A stretch of 57,571 nt of DNA from Coriobacteriia bacterium (GCA_009779675.1 WRDS01000001.1:1-57571); one strand, 5' to 3'; shown: positions 7,175 through 45,542, counted from the stretch's first letter. The notes: a model not told the origin generated them from the letters alone. Numbers and translations: made by a program.

Positions 7175-10100
7175 TCAGTCGATCAGCATCGCCCGCAGCT
7201 TGTTCATGACACTCTCGGAGACCACATTGTCCCCGCCATAGATCTGGATGTCTGGCTTGATGCCCCCGTACGCGCCTGACAGGTAGCCCTCCCAGTTCTG
7301 GGAGAGCGCGTCTGGCGTGGTGAGCACGAGTATGCCGCCACGCTCGCCTGTCGCAGCCCCTCCGGCAAGCGCGTCAGGGAAGTTCAACCCTGTGGCCACA
7401 CCGATGAAGTTCTTGGTGGCAAGCGAGTTGTCAAACGCGTGCCTTGCTATCGCCTCTGCGGTGGCGTAGCGGTCTGTGCCGGCGACACGTCTGACGGTCA
7501 GGTCCGTACCGAGGGCACCGACCTCTGCCTCGACGCTTGCAGATACCGCAGCGACAGAGCCGAGTATGGTGACATCCATGATGCCGAGAGCCTGGATGGC
7601 ACTCCCTGCAGGGGCGGGGAGCTCTGCCGGACGGGTGAGAACGACCGGCATCTTGTTTCGATACGCAAGCGGGGATGCGGCAAGCCCGTCTGCGAAGTTG
7701 TCGCCGCGGGCAAGGAACGCCTTCTTGGCAAACGAGGTGCCCTCAAGCTCTGCAACCTTGTCTGCAATAGCAGTGCTCGTGGCGTAGCGGTCGGCACCGG
7801 CGATGCGCTCGACGTTTATGCCTGCCTCGCCAAGCAGGCCTTCTACTGCGTTAGAGACCGCTGCAGAAGAGCCCATGATGTAGGCTTGTTTTGCACCGAG
7901 GCGATTGATCTCGCCAAGCACACCGGTGCTCAAGGACTCGGTCCTCGTAAGCAGAAGTGGGGCGGAAAGCGAGCCTGCGAGCGCGCTTGCAGAAAGCGCG
8001 TCTGCGTAGTTCGCACCAGTGGCTATGATGACCGCGTTAGCGGACGTGAAGTTTCTCTTGCTGACCTCGATGGCGGTCGCATAGCGGTCTGCGCCTGATA
8101 TACGGGTGATCGTGCCGCCTGAGCCGTCGCCCTTGATCCTGTGGCAGCCGTCGCAGCCGTAGGTCTCCGGCCTGATGTAGCCGTGGCTTTCAGGGGCATC
8201 ATCGTCCGTGTGCCCTGGCTCGAGGTCAGGAGCCTCCGCGATGCGGTGGCACCCGGCATCCGTGCAGCCGGTGATGACGGGGTCGGTATGGCACATGTCC
8301 TCGCACCCAGTGCTTGTGGAGTCAAAACCCGCGCCATGCACCGTCTCGGCATGTTTGTCTTTCACAGTAGCCGTGATCGGCATGTCCTCTGGCTCAGGAT
8401 CGTCAGGATCCTCGAGGGTGATGGCAAAAGTGACGGTGTTGTGCGGCTCTTCCTCGTTCTCCTCGTTGTCAACCGCCCAGAACTCGAGCGTGTAGGTGCC
8501 TTCCCTTGAGGCAGCAACAACCGCCTCGTCCCCCAGGGTCACAACCGGTTCTTCGTCGTTCAAAATGTAGGTGACCTCACGCACACCGCTTGACTCCTCG
8601 TTCCCAGGACCCTCATCGGTGGCAGTGATGGTGATCGTGGCCGTGCCGACATAGCTCGCTTCAGCATCGCAGGCCGAGGACGGAGGGGTCTTGTCAGGGA
8701 GAAGGCCCACGCGGAACACCGCTATGTTGTGCGGCTCTTCCTCGTTCTCCTCGTTGTCAACCGCCCAGAACTCGAGCGTGTGGGTGCCTTCCTCTGAGAC
8801 GGTTATCGTCGTTGTGACATCGTAGGCAGGCGCGGCACCTGTAGGTGTCACGGTCTCTACATCGCCGTCATCAACTTTGTAATAGAGCGCTGCCACGCCC
8901 GAGCCGCCCGTCTCGTCGGTCGCGGTGAGGGTGATCACCGCAGGCGCGGATGCATAGCCAAGGGCCGCATCGGAGCCAGACACCGGGGGAGTCGTGTCGG
9001 GGAGGGCCGTGACGGTAAATTTGACCTCCGTGTGCGGGAACTCCTCGTTCTCCGCGTTATCAACTGCCCAGAACTCGAGCGTGTGGATACCATCGCCTAC
9101 GACAGTGACGGTAGCCGTGACCACATACGCTGGCAAAGCGCCTGTGGGCATCACGGTCTCTATGCCGCCGTCGTCGACTTTGTAGTAGAGCGCCGCCACG
9201 CCCGAGCCGCCCGTCTCGTCGGTCGCGGTGAGGGTGATCGTGGCCATGCCGACATAGCTCGCCTCGATGTCACAGATCGTAGCAGGCGGGGTCTCATCGG
9301 GTGGCGGGCCGCTGATAAGGATCGGGGTGCTCGTGCTCACCGTTGTCTCGTTGCCGAGCTTCCCATACTCGTTGCTTCCCCACGCCCAGAGCGAACCGTC
9401 ACTTTTCGTGGCAAGAGTGTGGCTGCTTCCTGCGCTGATCGCTCTCCAGCCAATATCAGTCTCAACCTGTGTGGGGACATCCTTACCGGCACCCGAACCG
9501 CTGGTACCAATGCCGAGCTGCCCATACTCGTTGTTCCCCCAAGCCCAAAGGGAGCCGTCACGTTTTGTGCCAAAGGAGTGATACCTCCTTGCGGTGATCG
9601 CTTCCCAATCGGCACCACTCCCAATCTGGGTGGGAGCATTCTTGTTGTAAACCGAGCCGGTCGAACCGCCGCCGAGCTGTCCAGAATTGTTGTAACCCCA
9701 CGCCCAGAGCGAGCCATCGCCCTTGATGCCGAGGGAGTGGTCCTCGCCTGCAACAACCGCTTTCCAATCGGCAGCTGTTCCGGCTTTGGTCGGGATATTC
9801 CTGTTCGCAGTCGCACCGTTCGCACTGTTGCCGAGCTGCCCATAGAAGTTATATCCCCATGCCCAAAGCGTGCCGTCGTCTTTGATGGCAAGGGAGTGGC
9901 GACCTCCTGCGCTAACGTCCTGCCATGCATCGGTAGCGACCCCGATGAGGACAGGGGTGCTCGTGTTCACCGTCGTGCCGTTGCCGAGCCGACCAAACTC
10001 GTTATACCCCCATGCCCAGAGCGAGCCGTCGTCTTTTATGGCACAGGAATGATTGTCTCCTGCACTGACCGCCGTCCAGTCGTAGTCGGCCCCGATGCGA

Positions 10101-10564
10101 ACAGGGACGTTCTTGTCGTTGGCATTCGTCCCGCTCCCGCCAGTCCCATCGCCAAGCTGGCCCCAGGGGTTAAACCCCCATGCCCAGAGCGAGCCATCCT
10201 CCTTGAGCGCAAGGGAATGGCTGTGGCCTGCGCTGATCGCCTCCCAATCGGTATCGTCTCCGATCTGGGTGGGGACGTTCTTGCTTGTATTCGTACCGTC
10301 GCCGAGCTGTCCTGTCCTGTTAACCCCCCATGCCCAAAGCGTGCCGTCGTCCCTTAGGCCAAGGGAGTACCCATCCCCTGCGCTTACAGCCGTCCATTTT
10401 GCAAACGGCTGGCTTTCGGCCAGTATGGCAGCGCCCCTATCGGAACCTCCAGCCAGTGCCTCGGCATTCGACTGTCCCTGTGCAGAAGCGCTCAGGGGCG
10501 AGAGCACAAGGATCGTGGCAAGGATAAGACCGACAAGAGAACCGGATTGCCCGAACCGACGCAT
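7175..10564 (-). CDS. Secreted, cell-wall-anchored RCC1 beta-propeller protein with Ig-like modules, a Cys/His (haem-motif) linker and three CWB2 repeats
   Basis: Signal peptide 'LILATILVLSPLSASAQG'. Seven blades of 'DG(S/T)LWAWGxNxxGQLGxG'. Three Ig-like modules of about 95 aa ('TLTATDETGGSGVAALYYKVDDG..HTLEFWAVDNxENEE'). 'CEDMCH','CTDAGCH','CDGCH' motifs. Three C-terminal 'GADRYATA'-type cell wall binding repeat 2 units. Confidence 0.85.
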   Translation of the reverse strand: MRRFGQSGSLVGLILATILVLSPLSASAQGQSNAEALAGGSDRGAAILAESQPFAKWTAVSAGDGYSLGLRDDGTLWAWGVNRTGQLGDGTNTSKNVPTQIGDDTDWEAISAGHSHSLALKEDGSLWAWGFNPWGQLGDGTGGSGTNANDKNVPVRIGADYDWTAVSAGDNHSCAIKDDGSLWAWGYNEFGRLGNGTTVNTSTPVLIGVATDAWQDVSAGGRHSLAIKDDGTLWAWGYNFYGQLGNSANGATANRNIPTKAGTAADWKAVVAGEDHSLGIKGDGSLWAWGYNNSGQLGGGSTGSVYNKNAPTQIGSGADWEAITARRYHSFGTKRDGSLWAWGNNEYGQLGIGTSGSGAGKDVPTQVETDIGWRAISAGSSHTLATKSDGSLWAWGSNEYGKLGNETTVSTSTPILISGPPPDETPPATICDIEASYVGMATITLTATDETGGSGVAALYYKVDDGGIETVMPTGALPAYVVTATVTVVGDGIHTLEFWAVDNAENEEFPHTEVKFTVTALPDTTPPVSGSDAALGYASAPAVITLTATDETGGSGVAALYYKVDDGDVETVTPTGAAPAYDVTTTITVSEEGTHTLEFWAVDNEENEEEPHNIAVFRVGLLPDKTPPSSACDAEASYVGTATITITATDEGPGNEESSGVREVTYILNDEEPVVTLGDEAVVAASREGTYTLEFWAVDNEENEEEPHNTVTFAITLEDPDDPEPEDMPITATVKDKHAETVHGAGFDSTSTGCEDMCHTDPVITGCTDAGCHRIAEAPDLEPGHTDDDAPESHGYIRPETYGCDGCHRIKGDGSGGTITRISGADRYATAIEVSKRNFTSANAVIIATGANYADALSASALAGSLSAPLLLTRTESLSTGVLGEINRLGAKQAYIMGSSAAVSNAVEGLLGEAGINVERIAGADRYATSTAIADKVAELEGTSFAKKAFLARGDNFADGLAASPLAYRNKMPVVLTRPAELPAPAGSAIQALGIMDVTILGSVAAVSASVEAEVGALGTDLTVRRVAGTDRYATAEAIARHAFDNSLATKNFIGVATGLNFPDALAGGAATGERGGILVLTTPDALSQNWEGYLSGAYGGIKPDIQIYGGDNVVSESVMNKLRAMLID
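8420..9292 (-). repeat. Intragenic tandem triplication (about 280-bp units) encoding the Ig-like modules
   Basis: Near-identical DNA blocks such as 'gttgtgcggctcttcctcgttctcctcgttgtcaaccgcccagaactcgagcgtgt' recur at about 8440 and 8720, with a diverged copy near 9030. 'gccacgcccgagccgcccgtctcgtcggtcgcggtgagggtgatc' recurs at about 8893 and 9194. Confidence 0.8.
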
Positions 10565-39709: not shown

Positions 39710-41476
39710 TTATGGGTGGCAAACCCCACAACCATTCTTGAAGTACGTCGTATAGTTCCTACCTGGGTGACAAGTGAGACACGATGCCCATGACCCCGGA
39801 TTAATCCATTCGTTGTGGAAGGTCAGCGTCTTATGAGTGAAGCTGATGTCGTTATTCCACGTCGTTGGCTGGTGGCAGCTCCGACAACCCGTCGGGCCAA
39901 CGTGCGGCACATTCGCAAGGTGGCACGTCTGGCACGGGATCGTCGGCTCTGCAAATTTCAGGGCGTTCCCGTGGCAGAGCGCACAGCCCAGGTTCGTATG
40001 CTTTGCGCCCAGCCGGATGCTGCCCGGATGCGTGATGCTCTTAATCGGCTTCCACGCCACAGGCGTATGGCACTGCGTGCAGTTTGTCACAACCGAACCC
40101 GAGCCATGCGGGTTCTTCGCCGAGTGGCACCCAAAACAGGTCTTACCGGGGTCGCCTATAGGATCTTTGTAGTTGCCGCCAGAATGGCACGCCGAGCACG
40201 CCAGCAATGCATGCGCCCCTTCAAGCGGCCAGGCGTTTTCGTGCTCGAAGGTCGTCGGTTTCCACCCGGAGGTCGTATGGCAATCGGTGCAGGCAGTCAA
40301 GCCACCATGTGCAGCGCCATGGCAAGCGCTATCACCGCAAACCCTGGGCGTTCCCTTGTATTTCCCGTTCTTGTGGCACTTCGTGCACGCAAGCGACCGA
40401 TGCTTGCCTGTCAGGTTGAAGTACTTCGAGTGGCCGAAGCTCGCCGGAGCGAACCGCACGGTGTTGTGGCAGCTCTCGCAGTTCTTCAAGCCGACATGCG
40501 CAACCTTGTGGCAGCCGACACACTGCCTGGGCGTGCCCACATACCGCCTCTTGGGATGGCAGCTGTCGCACTTGATCTTCTTGTGCTGGCCGGTAAGCGC
40601 GAACCCAAAGGCCCCGTGATTGAACCCAGGGAGCGCCTTCCAACCGGTTGTCGGCCTGTGGCACGAAGCGCACCTGGTAAGCCTGTGCTTCACCCCATGG
40701 CAATCGACACAGTCCGTGGAGGTGCCTGCAAACTTCCCATTGCGGTGGCAACCGGCGCACGGAACCGTCTTGTGTGCGCCCTGCAACGCATAGAACGCGC
40801 TGTGGTCGAAGTCAGGGGAGGGCTTCCATCCCCTGCTGGGATGGTGGCAGCTCTCGCAGTTCTTCAGGCCGCCATGCTTGGGTCCATGGCAATCGCCGCA
40901 CGTCTGTTCCGGCAGCGCAGGGTCACGGACCTCATAATGGCAATTGAAACAGGGGAGCCCTTCGTGGCCACCCTCAAGGGACACATGCTCGGTCGGGACG
41001 GGCTTGGGAAGGATCCATGGCTGTTCCGGGGTATGACACACCGCGCAAGAAAGGCTTTTTGCCTCTTTGTGGCTCTCGGGGATGTCCCCGTCTTTTTGCG
41101 CATGGCACCCCTCGCAGGTCGTGGGGGGAAGCTCGCCATCTTTGTTGTGACAGGACATGCAGTCGATCATCGAGTGCATGCCGATGTTCATGTCCTTGTT
41201 TGCCTCGTGCTCGTAGGGCTTAACCGTCCAACTGCCCGCATTGTGACATACGGCGCAGTCCTTACTGGCGAAGGGCTCCGCGGGCTTGTAGTCATAGTTG
41301 GGCATATCCTTACACGAGGTGCATTGCTGACCAGCAGCAACTACAGGATGCCCCTTTTCTTCCTTCTGGATCTCCTCCGTCTTGGAGACAGCGCAGCCCG
41401 CCAGGATTAAGACGGCAACTAACAACAAGGCACTTGCAAGGGTCTTTACGCGTATTTTAGATTCCATGTCCCTCAT
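39710..41476 (-). CDS. Lipoprotein multihaem c-type cytochrome (23 CXXCH + 1 CX4CH + 1 CXXCK)
   Basis: Signal/lipobox 'LLLVAVLILAGC'. I counted 23 CXXCH motifs (CAVCH, CMSCH, CEGCH ... CGVCH), plus 'CGDSACH' and an N-terminal 'CTSCK'. Repeated 'C..CH....GWKP' paired-CXXCH architecture. Confidence 0.9.
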   Translation of the reverse strand: MRDMESKIRVKTLASALLLVAVLILAGCAVSKTEEIQKEEKGHPVVAAGQQCTSCKDMPNYDYKPAEPFASKDCAVCHNAGSWTVKPYEHEANKDMNIGMHSMIDCMSCHNKDGELPPTTCEGCHAQKDGDIPESHKEAKSLSCAVCHTPEQPWILPKPVPTEHVSLEGGHEGLPCFNCHYEVRDPALPEQTCGDCHGPKHGGLKNCESCHHPSRGWKPSPDFDHSAFYALQGAHKTVPCAGCHRNGKFAGTSTDCVDCHGVKHRLTRCASCHRPTTGWKALPGFNHGAFGFALTGQHKKIKCDSCHPKRRYVGTPRQCVGCHKVAHVGLKNCESCHNTVRFAPASFGHSKYFNLTGKHRSLACTKCHKNGKYKGTPRVCGDSACHGAAHGGLTACTDCHTTSGWKPTTFEHENAWPLEGAHALLACSACHSGGNYKDPIGDPGKTCFGCHSAKNPHGSGSVVTNCTQCHTPVAWKPIKSITHPGSIRLGAKHTNLGCALCHGNALKFAEPTIPCQTCHLANVPHVGPTGCRSCHQPTTWNNDISFTHKTLTFHNEWINPGSWASCLTCHPGRNYTTYFKNGCGVCHP

Positions 41477-41769
41477 TCACTCCGGCTTCACGCATACAGA
41501 CAAGCACGCCGACAGCGACCAAACAAACTCCATCAAATCTCTATTCTATGCTAGCTTCGTACGTTGTACAACAATAAACCGCCGCACACGTGTTATCGGC
41601 ACACGCACGGTCGTTGCCCCGCAGCCAGCTCTGTCTTTTGTACCACGCATTCTACGCCTAAATCAGCCGAGAATGCGAAAACAACTGACCAAAGCCGCTT
41701 TTCTTTCGTTTTTCTTTCCGGTTAAGCGTAAACCTCGGCGATTTTACCAAGGCTACGCGGCAATCTTTA

Positions 41770-41845
41770 TGGTGGAGACGAAGGGACTCGAACCCTCGAC
41801 ATCAGGCTTGCAAAGCCTGCGCTCTCCCAACTGAGCTACGTCCCC
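41770..41845 (-). tRNA. tRNA-Ala (anticodon UGC)
   Basis: The reverse complement GGGGACGTAGCTCAGTTGGGAGAGCGCAGGCTTTGCAAGCCTGATGTCGAGGGTTCGAGTCCCTTCGTCTCCACCA folds as a cloverleaf. It has the G3:U70 Ala identity pair, anticodon loop UUUGCAA and an encoded CCA. Confidence 0.95.
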
Positions 41846-41995
41846 GAGCGTGCGTCAGTATAGCCGCGCCTGCGTCCATACTGCAAATTTAGGAATTGCC
41901 GCGCCGCATTCGCCAGGTAGCGGCCTTCTTACGTGACCTCGCCTAGCGCCTGATGACATTTGGCAACGCTGACGTAAGCAATTGTTACAGCGTCA

Positions 41996-42072
41996 TGGTG
42001 GGCCCGACTGGATTCGAACCAGTGACCTCACGGTTATCAGCCGTGCGCTCTAGCCAACTGAGCTACGGGCCC
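41996..42072 (-). tRNA. tRNA-Ile (anticodon GAU)
   Basis: The reverse complement GGGCCCGTAGCTCAGTTGGCTAGAGCGCACGGCTGATAACCGTGAGGTCACTGGTTCGAATCCAGTCGGGCCCACCA folds as a cloverleaf, with anticodon loop CUGAUAA and an encoded CCA. Confidence 0.95.
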
Positions 42073-42092: not shown

Positions 42093-45000
42093 CTACGATA
42101 GCGTGCACCCTTGGCCACCGTCAAGCACCGGATCCGCCGAACGCGCCGGATTCCCCAGGAATCCGCGGAGCCCACGCCTTCGAGTAAGGATCGCGCATAG
42201 GACTGCACTGCCAATAAGCATGATGCCGGCAACCGTTAAAGCAAGCACGCCTGCACCGCCCGAGTGGGGCATGGTCATTTGGCGGTAATTCGGCAATGTA
42301 AGGCCATTCGCGCCTGACTTGAACGCCGGTGGCTGCGAGACGGAATCGAAGCCACGTGCGGTGATATCGATGTCTGAGGTGGCGCTATCGCTATCTATGG
42401 TGATGAGCCACTGGCCACGCGGGAGCTGGTAGCCAGGAAGCGTCTTGGCCTCTACAAGCATATATTCGCCAGGCTCCAGACCCCAAAAACCTACAATGCC
42501 GTCCGCGTCGCTTGTCGCGGTAAGGGGATCGCTCCAGCAACAAAGCTCGGTGCCGGTCATCCCATCGTATGCCAGCCAGTCGTGGGAGTGGTAAGGATTC
42601 TCCTTCTCGGAGCACGAATACAGCTCGAACACGACACCTTTCATAGGGGCATCGGCCTCGTCAGCCTTACGGAACGTAAGGTCTACGGGATCCGGGGGGG
42701 GGGACGTTGGCGTATAGGTGATCGGGTAGCTGTCCCAACCTGTCTCATTCTCTATGACCACTAACATGTTGTACGCCTGATCCGGGATAAGACCCGTTAG
42801 CGCGTAGTTCTCAAAACCCGCATAATCAAACTCGGAGGCGAGCAGGATTGCTGAGCTGTGTGCTGCCCAGGATGGCTTGCCGCCAGGATCTATAGGATCC
42901 GTATCCCAATAGACCGTTACCTCAAGGGGCTCTATGCCGCCCTCAAAGGCCGCGCTTACCAATGCCTCCCCCGCCGCAGCGCCTTTATTCGCCTCGCCGC
43001 CCGTGATGCTTGGCGATGTCACGAATTCGGCTACCTCATCGCTCTCAAAGGTGTAATTGCTGGATCCCGACGTGAGCCCAAGGTCTACGTATACCGTGAT
43101 ATATGTGGTCAGGTAGTACCGTGTGTTGGGAAGCAGCGCCGCATCGCCCGTGTATTCACTAATCGTGGTCGTGGCAAAAGGGCTGATCCAGGGCAGATCC
43201 ACAGGGCTGTCCGGCCTGCCGCTTCCGTCAAGTCTATCCGAGTACTTAAAGCCGCCCGCGACATAGCTGCCGCTTCCTAAGGCGTGACCCGTGCTGACAA
43301 GGTCGGCGAAGTGTTTGCCGACGCTGTCTGCCGAGGGTGTGCCTGCCACAGGCAGGTAAACCGAGGGCAGCCGCCGCAGTTTGACAGGAAGCATGCCGTT
43401 GCCCGCGTTGTTGTTATGCTCATTGTACCCGGCTCGCGTCGCAACCGAGTAGATCTGCTCCTTGTCGTCTGCAGCGCGCACGACTGTCCCTATGATCGCA
43501 GAGCCGTTCTGCGCAAGTATATTGTCCGTTCGGGACTCGTCTATATCCGAACTGTAAGCAAAATTCTTGTACATGGCAGGCAAGGTCAGTGTTTTGAGCA
43601 GCGCGCTCAAATCCCCGTCGGCATACACGTTCAGCGTCGTGTCCTCTGTGGGCGAGACCGCCGAATCGACAAAGCCTGCATTAACGTAGTAGCCATTGCC
43701 CCTGTTGTTTTGAGTGCTGATGGCCGGGTAGTTCTCTTGGGAATACGCCCTGACATTCGCCGCAGCATCAAGATGGAAGTCTGCTAGATTACTTGTGCTG
43801 CTCCCAATGCCCGTGCTCTTCTCGCTTTGTGCAACCACCGTTCCGCCTGTGATGGCAATAGTGCTTCCGCCCTGATTGCCCCAGTAGCCGATGCCTGGGC
43901 CATTAACGCTCTTCGAGTACACCGTTCCGCCTGTGATGGTGATGTTGCATGCGCTGGGAGGGTTGCTGTTGTGAACCACGCCGATCCCCGTAAACTGAGA
44001 GGCCACGCTTACCGCACCACCGTTGATCACGATGTTGCCGCCTCCCGTGCGGTTGGAGCCCGCAGCAGAGCCGATGCCCGCGCCGTCTCCAGATTGCCCG
44101 GGGTAGTTGGCTACGGTCACATCGACAACCCCACCGTCGATGGTGATGTCTCCGGCTGGGCCATATGTGCCGCCGCCAATGCCCGCGCCGCGTGTGTGCT
44201 GGCGCACGGTCACCTTACCGCCGGTGATCTTGACCACACCGGCATCGCCACCATTAATGGAGGTGCCGCCGCCGCCGCCAATGCCCGCGCCGCCGACTGG
44301 CAGGCTCCCGCTGTTGACGCTGCCGTACTGCGTGACGGACACTGTTCCGCCGTTTATTGTGGTCATGCCGCCGTTGCCGCCACTGGTGCTACCGGTGCCC
44401 TCGAGACCATAGGCGCCGCCGCCGCCGATACATGCGCCTGACGAGTAGGCGGTTATGTCTATTGCGCCACCGTTTATTGTGACTGTGCCACCCGCACTGC
44501 CATTGCCGCCAGAACCGGAGCCACCAGAGCCGCCGATACCCGCATGGGTGCTGACGGAGCCCGCCTTTGGCGACATGGTAAGCCGATCGTCGGTATCGCT
44601 TCCGTTCAAGCTGTTGATGATGATCTCGGAGGTCGAGGGCACCTGGATGTAGCGCCTGATATAATTTTGACCGCTCAGCAGCAAAGCCAACCTACCTGAG
44701 CCAGACAGGTAGATCCTGCCCCCTGCTGAGAACGAGCCTCCCCCGAGGTCCTTGTCCCCCCCCATGTCTATCCTATCTATCACCAGCGTGACATCCACTC
44801 CGTCTGGAACCTCGATGCTGCCAAACATGGATGTGCCGTTCTTGCCGCCCGCATTAAGTGCACCACTTTGATAAATGCGATATACTTTTTCGTTGGCATT
44901 CGTGTTAAAAGTAAGGATGTAATCAGGCTTTGCGATTGGAAAGCGGGGATCGTAGGCCGCCGTGCCGGCAGAGACCGTATACCCATCGGCAGCGTTGCCC

Positions 45001-45206
45001 GTGATGGCAGTGGAGAGATCCAGCTCGGCCGCATACGTAAGTGCCCGCGCCCTCTGATCAGGTGGTACCGTTTCTTCCGTTGTAGCCTCGCCAGGATCAT
45101 CTGCGCCAAATGCAAAAAGACCCCTGATGGGCATCAGCCCCGCCAATATGATGAAAACCAGTAGGAGACGTGACAGTCTGCTTGCCGCGCTGCATCGCTT
45201 TTCCAT
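42093..45206 (-). CDS. Large surface adhesin: signal peptide, Gly-rich beta-helix-like repeats, SpaA/CnaB-type domain, sortase-like C-terminal anchor
   Basis: Start trimmed to ATG 45206 ('MEKRCSAASRLSRLLLVFIILAGLMP'). Repeated 'ITGGTV / INGGA..' and 'GAGIGGG' units. 'LTFRKADEADAPMKGVVFELY..GEYMLVEAKTLPGYQLP' is a CnaB/SpaA fold. C-terminus is 'MPHSGGAG' plus a hydrophobic helix plus 'RRRG'. Confidence 0.8.
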   Translation of the reverse strand: MEKRCSAASRLSRLLLVFIILAGLMPIRGLFAFGADDPGEATTEETVPPDQRARALTYAAELDLSTAITGNAADGYTVSAGTAAYDPRFPIAKPDYILTFNTNANEKVYRIYQSGALNAGGKNGTSMFGSIEVPDGVDVTLVIDRIDMGGDKDLGGGSFSAGGRIYLSGSGRLALLLSGQNYIRRYIQVPSTSEIIINSLNGSDTDDRLTMSPKAGSVSTHAGIGGSGGSGSGGNGSAGGTVTINGGAIDITAYSSGACIGGGGAYGLEGTGSTSGGNGGMTTINGGTVSVTQYGSVNSGSLPVGGAGIGGGGGTSINGGDAGVVKITGGKVTVRQHTRGAGIGGGTYGPAGDITIDGGVVDVTVANYPGQSGDGAGIGSAAGSNRTGGGNIVINGGAVSVASQFTGIGVVHNSNPPSACNITITGGTVYSKSVNGPGIGYWGNQGGSTIAITGGTVVAQSEKSTGIGSSTSNLADFHLDAAANVRAYSQENYPAISTQNNRGNGYYVNAGFVDSAVSPTEDTTLNVYADGDLSALLKTLTLPAMYKNFAYSSDIDESRTDNILAQNGSAIIGTVVRAADDKEQIYSVATRAGYNEHNNNAGNGMLPVKLRRLPSVYLPVAGTPSADSVGKHFADLVSTGHALGSGSYVAGGFKYSDRLDGSGRPDSPVDLPWISPFATTTISEYTGDAALLPNTRYYLTTYITVYVDLGLTSGSSNYTFESDEVAEFVTSPSITGGEANKGAAAGEALVSAAFEGGIEPLEVTVYWDTDPIDPGGKPSWAAHSSAILLASEFDYAGFENYALTGLIPDQAYNMLVVIENETGWDSYPITYTPTSPPPDPVDLTFRKADEADAPMKGVVFELYSCSEKENPYHSHDWLAYDGMTGTELCCWSDPLTATSDADGIVGFWGLEPGEYMLVEAKTLPGYQLPRGQWLITIDSDSATSDIDITARGFDSVSQPPAFKSGANGLTLPNYRQMTMPHSGGAGVLALTVAGIMLIGSAVLCAILTRRRGLRGFLGNPARSADPVLDGGQGCTLS
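42694..42703. repeat. G10 (C10 on the coding strand) homopolymer inside the adhesin ORF
   Basis: 'tccggggggggggacg' encodes 'TSPPPDP', just upstream of the CnaB domain and the anchor. Confidence 0.9.
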
Positions 45207-45542
45207 TGGACAACCCCTTTTGTTCAGCCTGTCCCTAGCGCCATTTGCCGAGAGGTGGCTTCGCCTTCCTTCTTCTATCTGCGTGGCATGTGCCCAGCTG
45301 CGAGCCAAGTTGGCGCCAGGTGCCCGGTCAGCCTGTGCGGGTGCTAGTCCTATGCGCTCGATGACCGGGCTTTATTACGCAAACAATTACGCGACTATGC
45401 CGTTCAAAGGCGGTTAGAAGCAATGCGCATGCCAAGACATCATTTCGTCTGCAAAACCTGGTCGACTCATTCGGAGTATGATGGCTGCTCAGAGAAAGAC
45501 TGCCCGCCATGCGGGCATGATCTGCTTTCCGGAGGATGCGTA

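Follow-up and report, generated by a model that had tools for sequence, protein, structure and literature searches.

A gene on the minus strand of a 57,571-nucleotide stretch of DNA from Coriobacteriia bacterium (GCA_009779675.1 WRDS01000001.1:1-57571, hereafter the window) encodes a 588-aa lipoprotein with 25 haem-binding motifs. We propose, at a probability of roughly 0.6, that this long cytochrome serves as a lipid-anchored haem wire that would carry electrons, in either direction, between a menaquinol-oxidising NapC/NirT-type cytochrome and the cell wall or surface. The proposal builds on the motifs, the module architecture, the ligand conservation, the membrane tether, the maturation and quinone genes of the genome, and the gene neighbourhoods in relatives, all of which were read directly from sequences. 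The protein type is already known from the c7-type polymers and the Gram-positive electron-export cytochromes, and this gene adds a member. The gene and its parts are as follows, in window positions.

39710..41476, minus strand: gene for the 588-aa multihaem lipoprotein with 25 haem-binding motifs, stop codon included
41393..41476, minus strand: signal peptide with lipobox L-A-G-C, aa 1-28, read from the sequence; Cys28 is the predicted lipidated residue
41048..41350, minus strand: N-terminal four-haem unit, aa 43-143, with motifs at C52 (CXXCK), C74, C106, and C121 and conserved distal His at 43, 90, 101, and 136, delimited by the Cytochrom_c3_2 match and column conservation
41309..41323, minus strand: CTSCK, aa 52-56, the haem site nearest to the membrane and first in order, with Lys in the usual place of His, located in a 41-sequence alignment
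39713..41047, minus strand: seven tandem c7-like three-haem modules, aa 144-588, delimited by spacing, module alignment, and a profile match to 3OV0
40319..40339, minus strand: CX4CH variant CGDSACH, aa 380-386, the third haem of module 4, from motif count and alignment

The minus-strand frame is the coding one because its GC content at third codon positions (GC3) is 0.72, compared with 0.54 in the overlapping antisense open reading frame (ORF) at 39815-41410, which was rejected as a gene and is a shadow of the minus-strand frame. The N-terminus, MRDMESKIRVKTLASALLLVAVLILAGC, has a charged n-region followed by a hydrophobic core and the lipobox L-A-G-C28, which closes the signal peptide and agrees with the lipoprotein pattern [LVI][ASTVI][GAS]C. 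Translation from either ATG (M1 or M4) gives an identical mature protein. A regular-expression count over the 588 residues returned 23 CXXCH, one CX4CH (CGDSACH, aa 380), and one CXXCK (CTSCK, aa 52), and so reproduced the haem count that an earlier note on this DNA had placed behind the LAGC lipobox. The protein contains 51 Cys, 49 His, and only 7 Met. In 2000 shuffles of its own residues, CXXCH occurred 0.36 times on average and four times at most.

The motifs repeat with a spacing of about 32, 16, and 14 residues. Pfam Cytochrome_C7 (PF14522) matches in nine stretches with an E value of 5e-31, and Cytochrom_c3_2 matches with an E value of 1e-16, its best stretch being the N-terminal part at aa 48-125. 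The first-haem cysteines of the seven modules are at positions 144, 207, 269, 333, 396, 466, and 531, and the protein terminates exactly after the last haem motif. Each module has three conserved distal His, with the exception of the last one, which has two. Conservation was scored in the 41-sequence alignment and counted only where the relevant module is present. Of the 49 His, 24 belong to motifs, and all these proximal His are at least 90% conserved. The same degree of conservation applies to 24 of the 25 non-motif His, the exception being H212. Hence, the 25 motifs are accompanied by conserved second axial ligands, as is expected of a multihaem cytochrome. In the CGDSACH variant, both Cys and the His fall in invariant columns, and the other orthologues have CXXCH there, aligned with a two-residue gap. 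The His conservation fits predicted bis-His ligation throughout the protein except for the four-haem head, where Lys56 and three motif His are joined by only three further conserved His (43, 90, and 101).

We then compared the protein with known structures and families. A phmmer search of the Protein Data Bank (PDB) with the whole protein returned nothing meaningful, whereas a profile of the seven modules gave the Geobacter dodecahaem protein GSU1996 as its first match (3OV0, E 4e-7) and also matched 3OUE. Tandem three-haem domains, the hallmark of a c7-type polymer, are thus seen in the nine PF14522 stretches, in the alignment of the seven modules, and in the match to 3OV0. The NCBIfam nanowire three-haem domain TIGR04257 scored 17 bits, below its cut-off of 40. 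Two further families were rejected, HmcA (NF045713, 26 bits against a cut-off of 400) and the decahaem family MtrA/DmsE (TIGR03508, 13.5 bits against 192). GSU1996 from Geobacter sulfurreducens (3OV0; fragments 3OUE and 3OUQ) resembles our protein in having tandem c7-type three-haem modules, which here, too, would form one long haem chain. It differs in having four c7-type domains with 12 haems, compared with 25 predicted haems and shorter modules of about 63 aa here. GSU1996 contains His-Met haems, whereas the present protein is apparently all bis-His and has no conserved Met. GSU1996 is soluble and periplasmic, whereas a lipid anchor would hold the present protein on a monoderm membrane, and the N-terminal head of four haems, which includes CXXCK, is a further difference. 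OcwA (6I5B) and the cell-envelope cytochromes of Thermincola potens, as well as the multihaem cytochromes of Anaerosomatales (PMC9686372), share with it a multihaem nature and a proposed role in carrying respiratory electrons across a Gram-positive wall. OcwA is a nine-haem protein with an NrfA-like fold and is not homologous to the long cytochrome, which would be a membrane-to-wall link, not a terminal reductase.

The host genome measures 1.89 Mb in 105 contigs, with 59.8% GC and 94% completeness. The window contains no cytochrome maturation gene and no quinol dehydrogenase gene; this earlier observation is correct for the window but does not extend to the genome. A Ccm operon at C29:9712-16159 (minus strand) encodes CcmE-F-A-B-C and a 67-aa CcmD-like ORF, and next to it lie hemA, hemC, and a gene resembling siroheme synthase. 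The encoded CcmE has a motif of the Cys type, KCPSKY, in which Cys replaces the usual haem-binding His, and we take the operon to match the System I variant known from archaea and sulfate reducers. Neither CcmH nor CcmG was seen at the operon, scans for the CcmH motif gave noise, and ResB is absent from the genome. The long cytochrome and its host accordingly hold the secretion signal and the maturation system that go with a multihaem cytochrome, namely the signal peptide and CcmEFABC on C29. With regard to lipidation, LspA is encoded at C31:5055-6104 (Pfam Peptidase_A8, E 1e-33), and a crude motif scan of the genome gave nothing credible for Lgt.

On the quinone side, a membrane-anchored cytochrome of the NapC/NirT type is encoded at C20:20437-21450 (minus strand). 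It has seven CXXCH and one CX3CH (CIEACH), giving eight sites, and is the only other ORF in the genome with more than three CXXCH. Its homologues occur in 59 of 61 relatives, mostly in frames of about 740 aa; here and in the genus-mate, the length is only 348-391 aa. Given this broad distribution, phylogenetic pairing of the two cytochromes was rejected as specific evidence. The NapC/NirT-type gene adjoins a gene for a DUF2085 membrane protein at C20:19424-20125 (minus strand). MenA is present in the genome, and MqnA was not found there. The genome also encodes a NiFe hydrogenase, whose large subunit at C44:1675-3159 (minus strand) has one in-frame TGA; this may indicate a selenocysteine-containing (NiFeSe) enzyme or a sequencing error.

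Orthologues of the long cytochrome, with 44-57% identity over 92-100% of the query, are found in metagenome-assembled genomes of uncultured Coriobacteriia/Actinomycetota. These membrane-anchored 'hypothetical proteins' with 20-27 haems share its module order, conserved ligands, and N-terminal tether, and most of them differ from it in keeping two His after CXXCK. Every orthologue is tethered, either by a lipobox (P0002, P0003, P0041, and P0043, the closest ones included) or by an uncleaved transmembrane helix (the others). The distribution is patchy (10 of 61 relatives, genus-mate included), and synteny is seen only in the genus-mate (L004/G001), whose copy is 55% identical. About 10 of 23 related loci have, immediately upstream and in the same orientation, a gene whose 8-9-haem product carries three CWB2 repeats and matches OcwA of Thermincola (6I5B, E 1.6e-14) as well as CWB2 proteins of C. 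difficile. The OcwA-like family occurs in six of nine relatives with the long cytochrome, compared with 14 of 51 without it. This neighbourhood supports, better than anything else, a putative electron path from membrane to surface. Unlike the OcwA-paired loci, those of this genome and the genus-mate have no such neighbour, and from this genome the OcwA-like family is missing altogether.

Cultured Anaerosomatales, relatives of this lineage, have 17-18 multihaem cytochromes and reduce Fe(III), one isolate being an obligate Fe(III) reducer (PMC9686372). Coriobacteriaceae bacterium EMTCatB1, which belongs to the same order as our organism and carries an orthologue of the long cytochrome (L009), is dominant on a methane-producing biocathode, where it expresses multihaem cytochromes under current (PMC7943316). 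In the transcriptome of that study, the genes flanking the orthologue (dnaG, rpoD, and amiC) match tags 1d0387-1d0389 (PMC7943316). The adjacent tags 1c0069 ('multiheme') and 1c0070 ('cwlB precursor') fit the EMTCatB1 gene pair, an unconfirmed assignment that we treat as a lead only, and no neighbour that would confirm this numbering turned up in the mapping. Subject to the same unconfirmed assignment to the orthologue, tag 1c0069 reached 646 transcripts per million in closed circuit versus 155 and 156 in controls (PMC7943316). Tag 1c0642 was rejected as the orthologue, its neighbours being a kinase and FHA-domain proteins. EMTCatB1 also encodes, just upstream of lepA on a contig of about 466-471 kb (L048:29-5125, plus strand), a secreted protein of about 1700 aa in which many CXXCH at either end flank a large central part without haem motifs, another giant multihaem protein of the lineage.

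The genome further encodes ten CWB2 wall proteins with a conserved three-haem module of about 90 aa directly before their triple CWB2 anchor. One of them lies within the window and is a candidate outer partner of the long cytochrome. They are located as follows.

7175..10564 of the window, minus strand: wall protein with an RCC1 propeller, Ig-like modules, the three-haem module, and 3xCWB2 (Pfam RCC1 and CW_binding_2)
C7:23356-24831, wall-module protein
C19:14304-16172, wall-module protein
C19:20996-25501, wall-module protein
C21:13353-25259, wall-module protein
C33:17156-19924, wall-module protein
C36:3-1154, wall-module protein
C36:11200-13968, wall-module protein
C42:2-2059, wall-module protein
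C86:4249-7071, wall-module protein

The module starts with DMPIT, continues with CxxCH or CX3CH, then C-T-[DY]-[AE]-G-C-H, and then CxxCH, and has three conserved extra His; in the window protein, it occupies 8060-8386. At the N-terminus, these proteins have RCC1 propellers, a CAP domain, or sequence of no recognised type, and one protein is a giant of 3964 aa. The product of C7:23356-24831 is minimal, consisting of a signal peptide, the three-haem module, and CWB2 only. Pfam did not recognise the module, and the genus-mate lacks it. Among 60 relatives and 400 genomes of the class, the module was seen only as two diverged single copies, in G030 and G106, in a search that scored 11 candidates per genome across the 400 genomes and could have missed some copies. 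A search of 5.8 billion proteins matched only the query itself, and a literature search gave no paper that combines multiheme with CWB2. Each of the three genomes that have the wall module also encodes the long cytochrome, compared with a base rate of 10 in 61. OcwA-like proteins are absent from two of the three, this genome and G030, G106 being outside this comparison. A common origin of the wall module and the cytochrome modules is unsupported, as hhalign matched only CXXCH pairs (82% probability over 29 columns). We propose that the wall modules may be the outer acceptors of the 25-haem wire. A bolder suggestion, which we make tentatively and would not bet on, is that the ten proteins replace an OcwA-like surface reductase and form, with the 25-haem lipoprotein, a 'wired wall', that is, a distributed layer for electron export or uptake. 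The wall module and its tenfold expansion are a more novel lead than the 25-haem cytochrome.

The following electron path would connect these components; in it, we infer the loading of haem, the geometry of the chain, every partner, and the direction of flow. The cytochrome would be secreted and lipid-anchored via Cys28 on the outer face of the cytoplasmic membrane, and CcmEFABC would load about 25 haems into the four-haem head and the seven c7-like modules. Near-complete bis-His ligation would give one continuous haem chain of roughly 20-25 nm, a length scaled from that of GSU1996, in which 12 haems span 12 nm. An H2-uptake NiFe hydrogenase would reduce menaquinone, and the eight-site NapC/NirT-type membrane cytochrome would oxidise menaquinol. 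Electrons would then enter at the membrane-proximal CXXCK haem and cross the cell wall along the haem chain. At its distal end, the OcwA-like nine-haem cytochrome, held in the wall by its CWB2 repeats, would take them up in related genomes. Because the OcwA-like protein is missing from this genome, the likeliest acceptors here would be the three-haem modules beside the CWB2 anchors of the ten wall proteins, or else acceptors outside the cell, reached without an intermediary. Flow in the opposite direction, for electron uptake, is equally conceivable.

Two functions had been suggested in the earlier note, a haem wire and a catalytic role of the NrfA type at CXXCK. The former gains from the c7-like module polymer, the tether in all orthologues, and the OcwA-like neighbour at about 10 of 23 loci, and the latter is not supported. 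If the protein were a catalytic enzyme, nitrite, sulfite, or a small molecule of that kind would be reduced at CXXCK, an active site like that of NrfA, supplied by the other 24 haems. The motif is indeed present, and CXXCK is probably a real haem site because both of its Cys are nearly invariant (Cys52 in 40 and Cys55 in 38 of 41 aligned sequences). Most orthologues read CxSCKxPxHDYxH, whereas our protein has N60 and K64 instead of the two His of HDYxH; therefore, one N-terminal haem should have an unusual or missing sixth ligand and could be five-coordinate, which would favour this reading. However, position 56 is Lys in 19 of the 41 relatives, His in 17, and another residue in five, an alternation unexpected for a catalytic ligand, as NrfA-type enzymes have a conserved Lys there. 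The Pfam search of the cytochrome gave no match to Cytochrom_C552 (PF02335), nor did the NCBIfam search give one to an NrfA model, and membership of the NrfA family was rejected on these curated cut-offs. The pentahaem nitrite reductase NrfA thus shares only the CXXCK motif with our protein and differs from it in architecture. At a distance of 24 residues from the lipid anchor, the motif is better placed for electron entry than for a substrate pocket. Attachment of haem to CXXCK in E. coli needs an NrfEFG-like lyase. No NrfEFG- or CcsA1-type lyase is found in this genome, whose Cytochrom_C_asm matches are one CcmF, CcmC, and a HemX-like protein. We give the enzyme hardly any credence and read CXXCK as the haem site through which electrons probably enter near the membrane, its ligand being tunable, and not as a centre of catalysis.

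Several observations weigh against the haem wire. NapC/NirT-type proteins occur in 59 of 61 relatives and the long cytochrome in 10, so that their pairing is not specific. The gene is isolated among unrelated genes (tRNAs, amino-acid permease, and TrkA). This assembly, which is 94% complete, lacks the OcwA-like partner and contains no match to its haem part. The AlphaFold2 models are weak, with a predicted local distance difference test score of 49.8 from 19 sequences, and of 67.6 with a predicted TM-score of 0.32 from 41 sequences. Foldseek found nothing significant for the model in the PDB, only MtrA (6R2Q_A) at an E value of 5.2. One N-terminal haem has no obvious sixth His ligand, and with a single CcmF and no NrfEFG-like lyase, haem attachment at CXXCK is uncertain. 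Some of these points would suit an electron store or hub, in which the 25 haems buffer the space between membrane and wall or feed reductases at the outer face and do not reach the surface. Electron storage has been proposed for Geobacter c7 polymers, and GSU1996, the closest solved relative, has been discussed as a capacitor; the widespread NapC/NirT partner would be a general hub, and the terminal OcwA-like reductase is missing. Yet besides the NapC/NirT-type protein and the wall modules, the genome has no other c-type cytochrome to receive electrons, and the neighbouring gene in relatives encodes a surface cytochrome anchored in the wall. As storage and conduction are not mutually exclusive, we regard a store or hub as unlikely but worth keeping in mind. 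The same loss of the OcwA-like partner, together with the unrelated surroundings, the patchy family, and only two multihaem cytochrome genes here compared with 17-18 in cultured relatives, could mark the gene as a stranded remnant, decaying or silent, of a lost electron-export system. We find this quite improbable, as the frame is intact and full-length, all haem Cys and His and the conserved distal His are kept, and GC3 is typical of a coding sequence. The gene has also been retained in synteny by the same-genus G001 at the 55% identity given above, and the genome still has its Ccm system and the genes for haem synthesis.

Around the haem-wire candidate, the window encodes genes unrelated to it, namely tRNAs, a SpaA-domain protein, an amino-acid permease, TrkA, ABC transporters, and gyrA/gyrB. 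Directly upstream of the gene are tRNA-Ala, tRNA-Ile, and the SpaA-domain surface protein, and two possible regulatory features lie in between.

41543..41570, minus strand: promoter-like site TGTACA-16-TAGAAT upstream of the cytochrome gene, weak, with 9/12 matches in a consensus scan
41582..41610, minus strand: terminator-like hairpin between tRNA-Ala and the promoter-like site, weak evidence

The consensus scan found two promoter-like sites, compared with 1.1 expected in shuffles. The weak site and the hairpin after tRNA-Ala suggest that the cytochrome gene may be a monocistronic unit. The pair of tRNA-Ile(GAT) and tRNA-Ala(TGC) at 41770-42072 (minus strand) lies between the surface-protein and cytochrome genes with no rRNA beside it; this pairing is typical of rRNA spacers. 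Adjoining the pair upstream, at 42093-45308 (minus strand), is the gene for the SpaA-domain protein, a 1071-aa surface protein that combines Gly-rich repeats, a prealbumin-like SpaA domain, and a hydrophobic anchor at the C-terminus and appears unrelated to the cytochrome.

To our knowledge, the passage of respiratory electrons across the thick Gram-positive wall is understood in a few cases only, such as Thermincola and flavin-based systems. The genome described here would offer a very small system of this kind, with one quinol-oxidising cytochrome, one 25-haem lipoprotein, and three-haem wall modules in 1.9 Mb. The switch between Lys and His at the first haem can be seen as an experiment of nature on how entry into a haem wire is tuned. 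Should the wall modules prove to be the outer acceptors, they would amount to a compact and portable 'haem tag' that wall proteins can carry. Such a tag, if true, would be a new way of making a cell wall conductive, with a bearing on iron cycling, syntrophy, and bioelectrochemistry.

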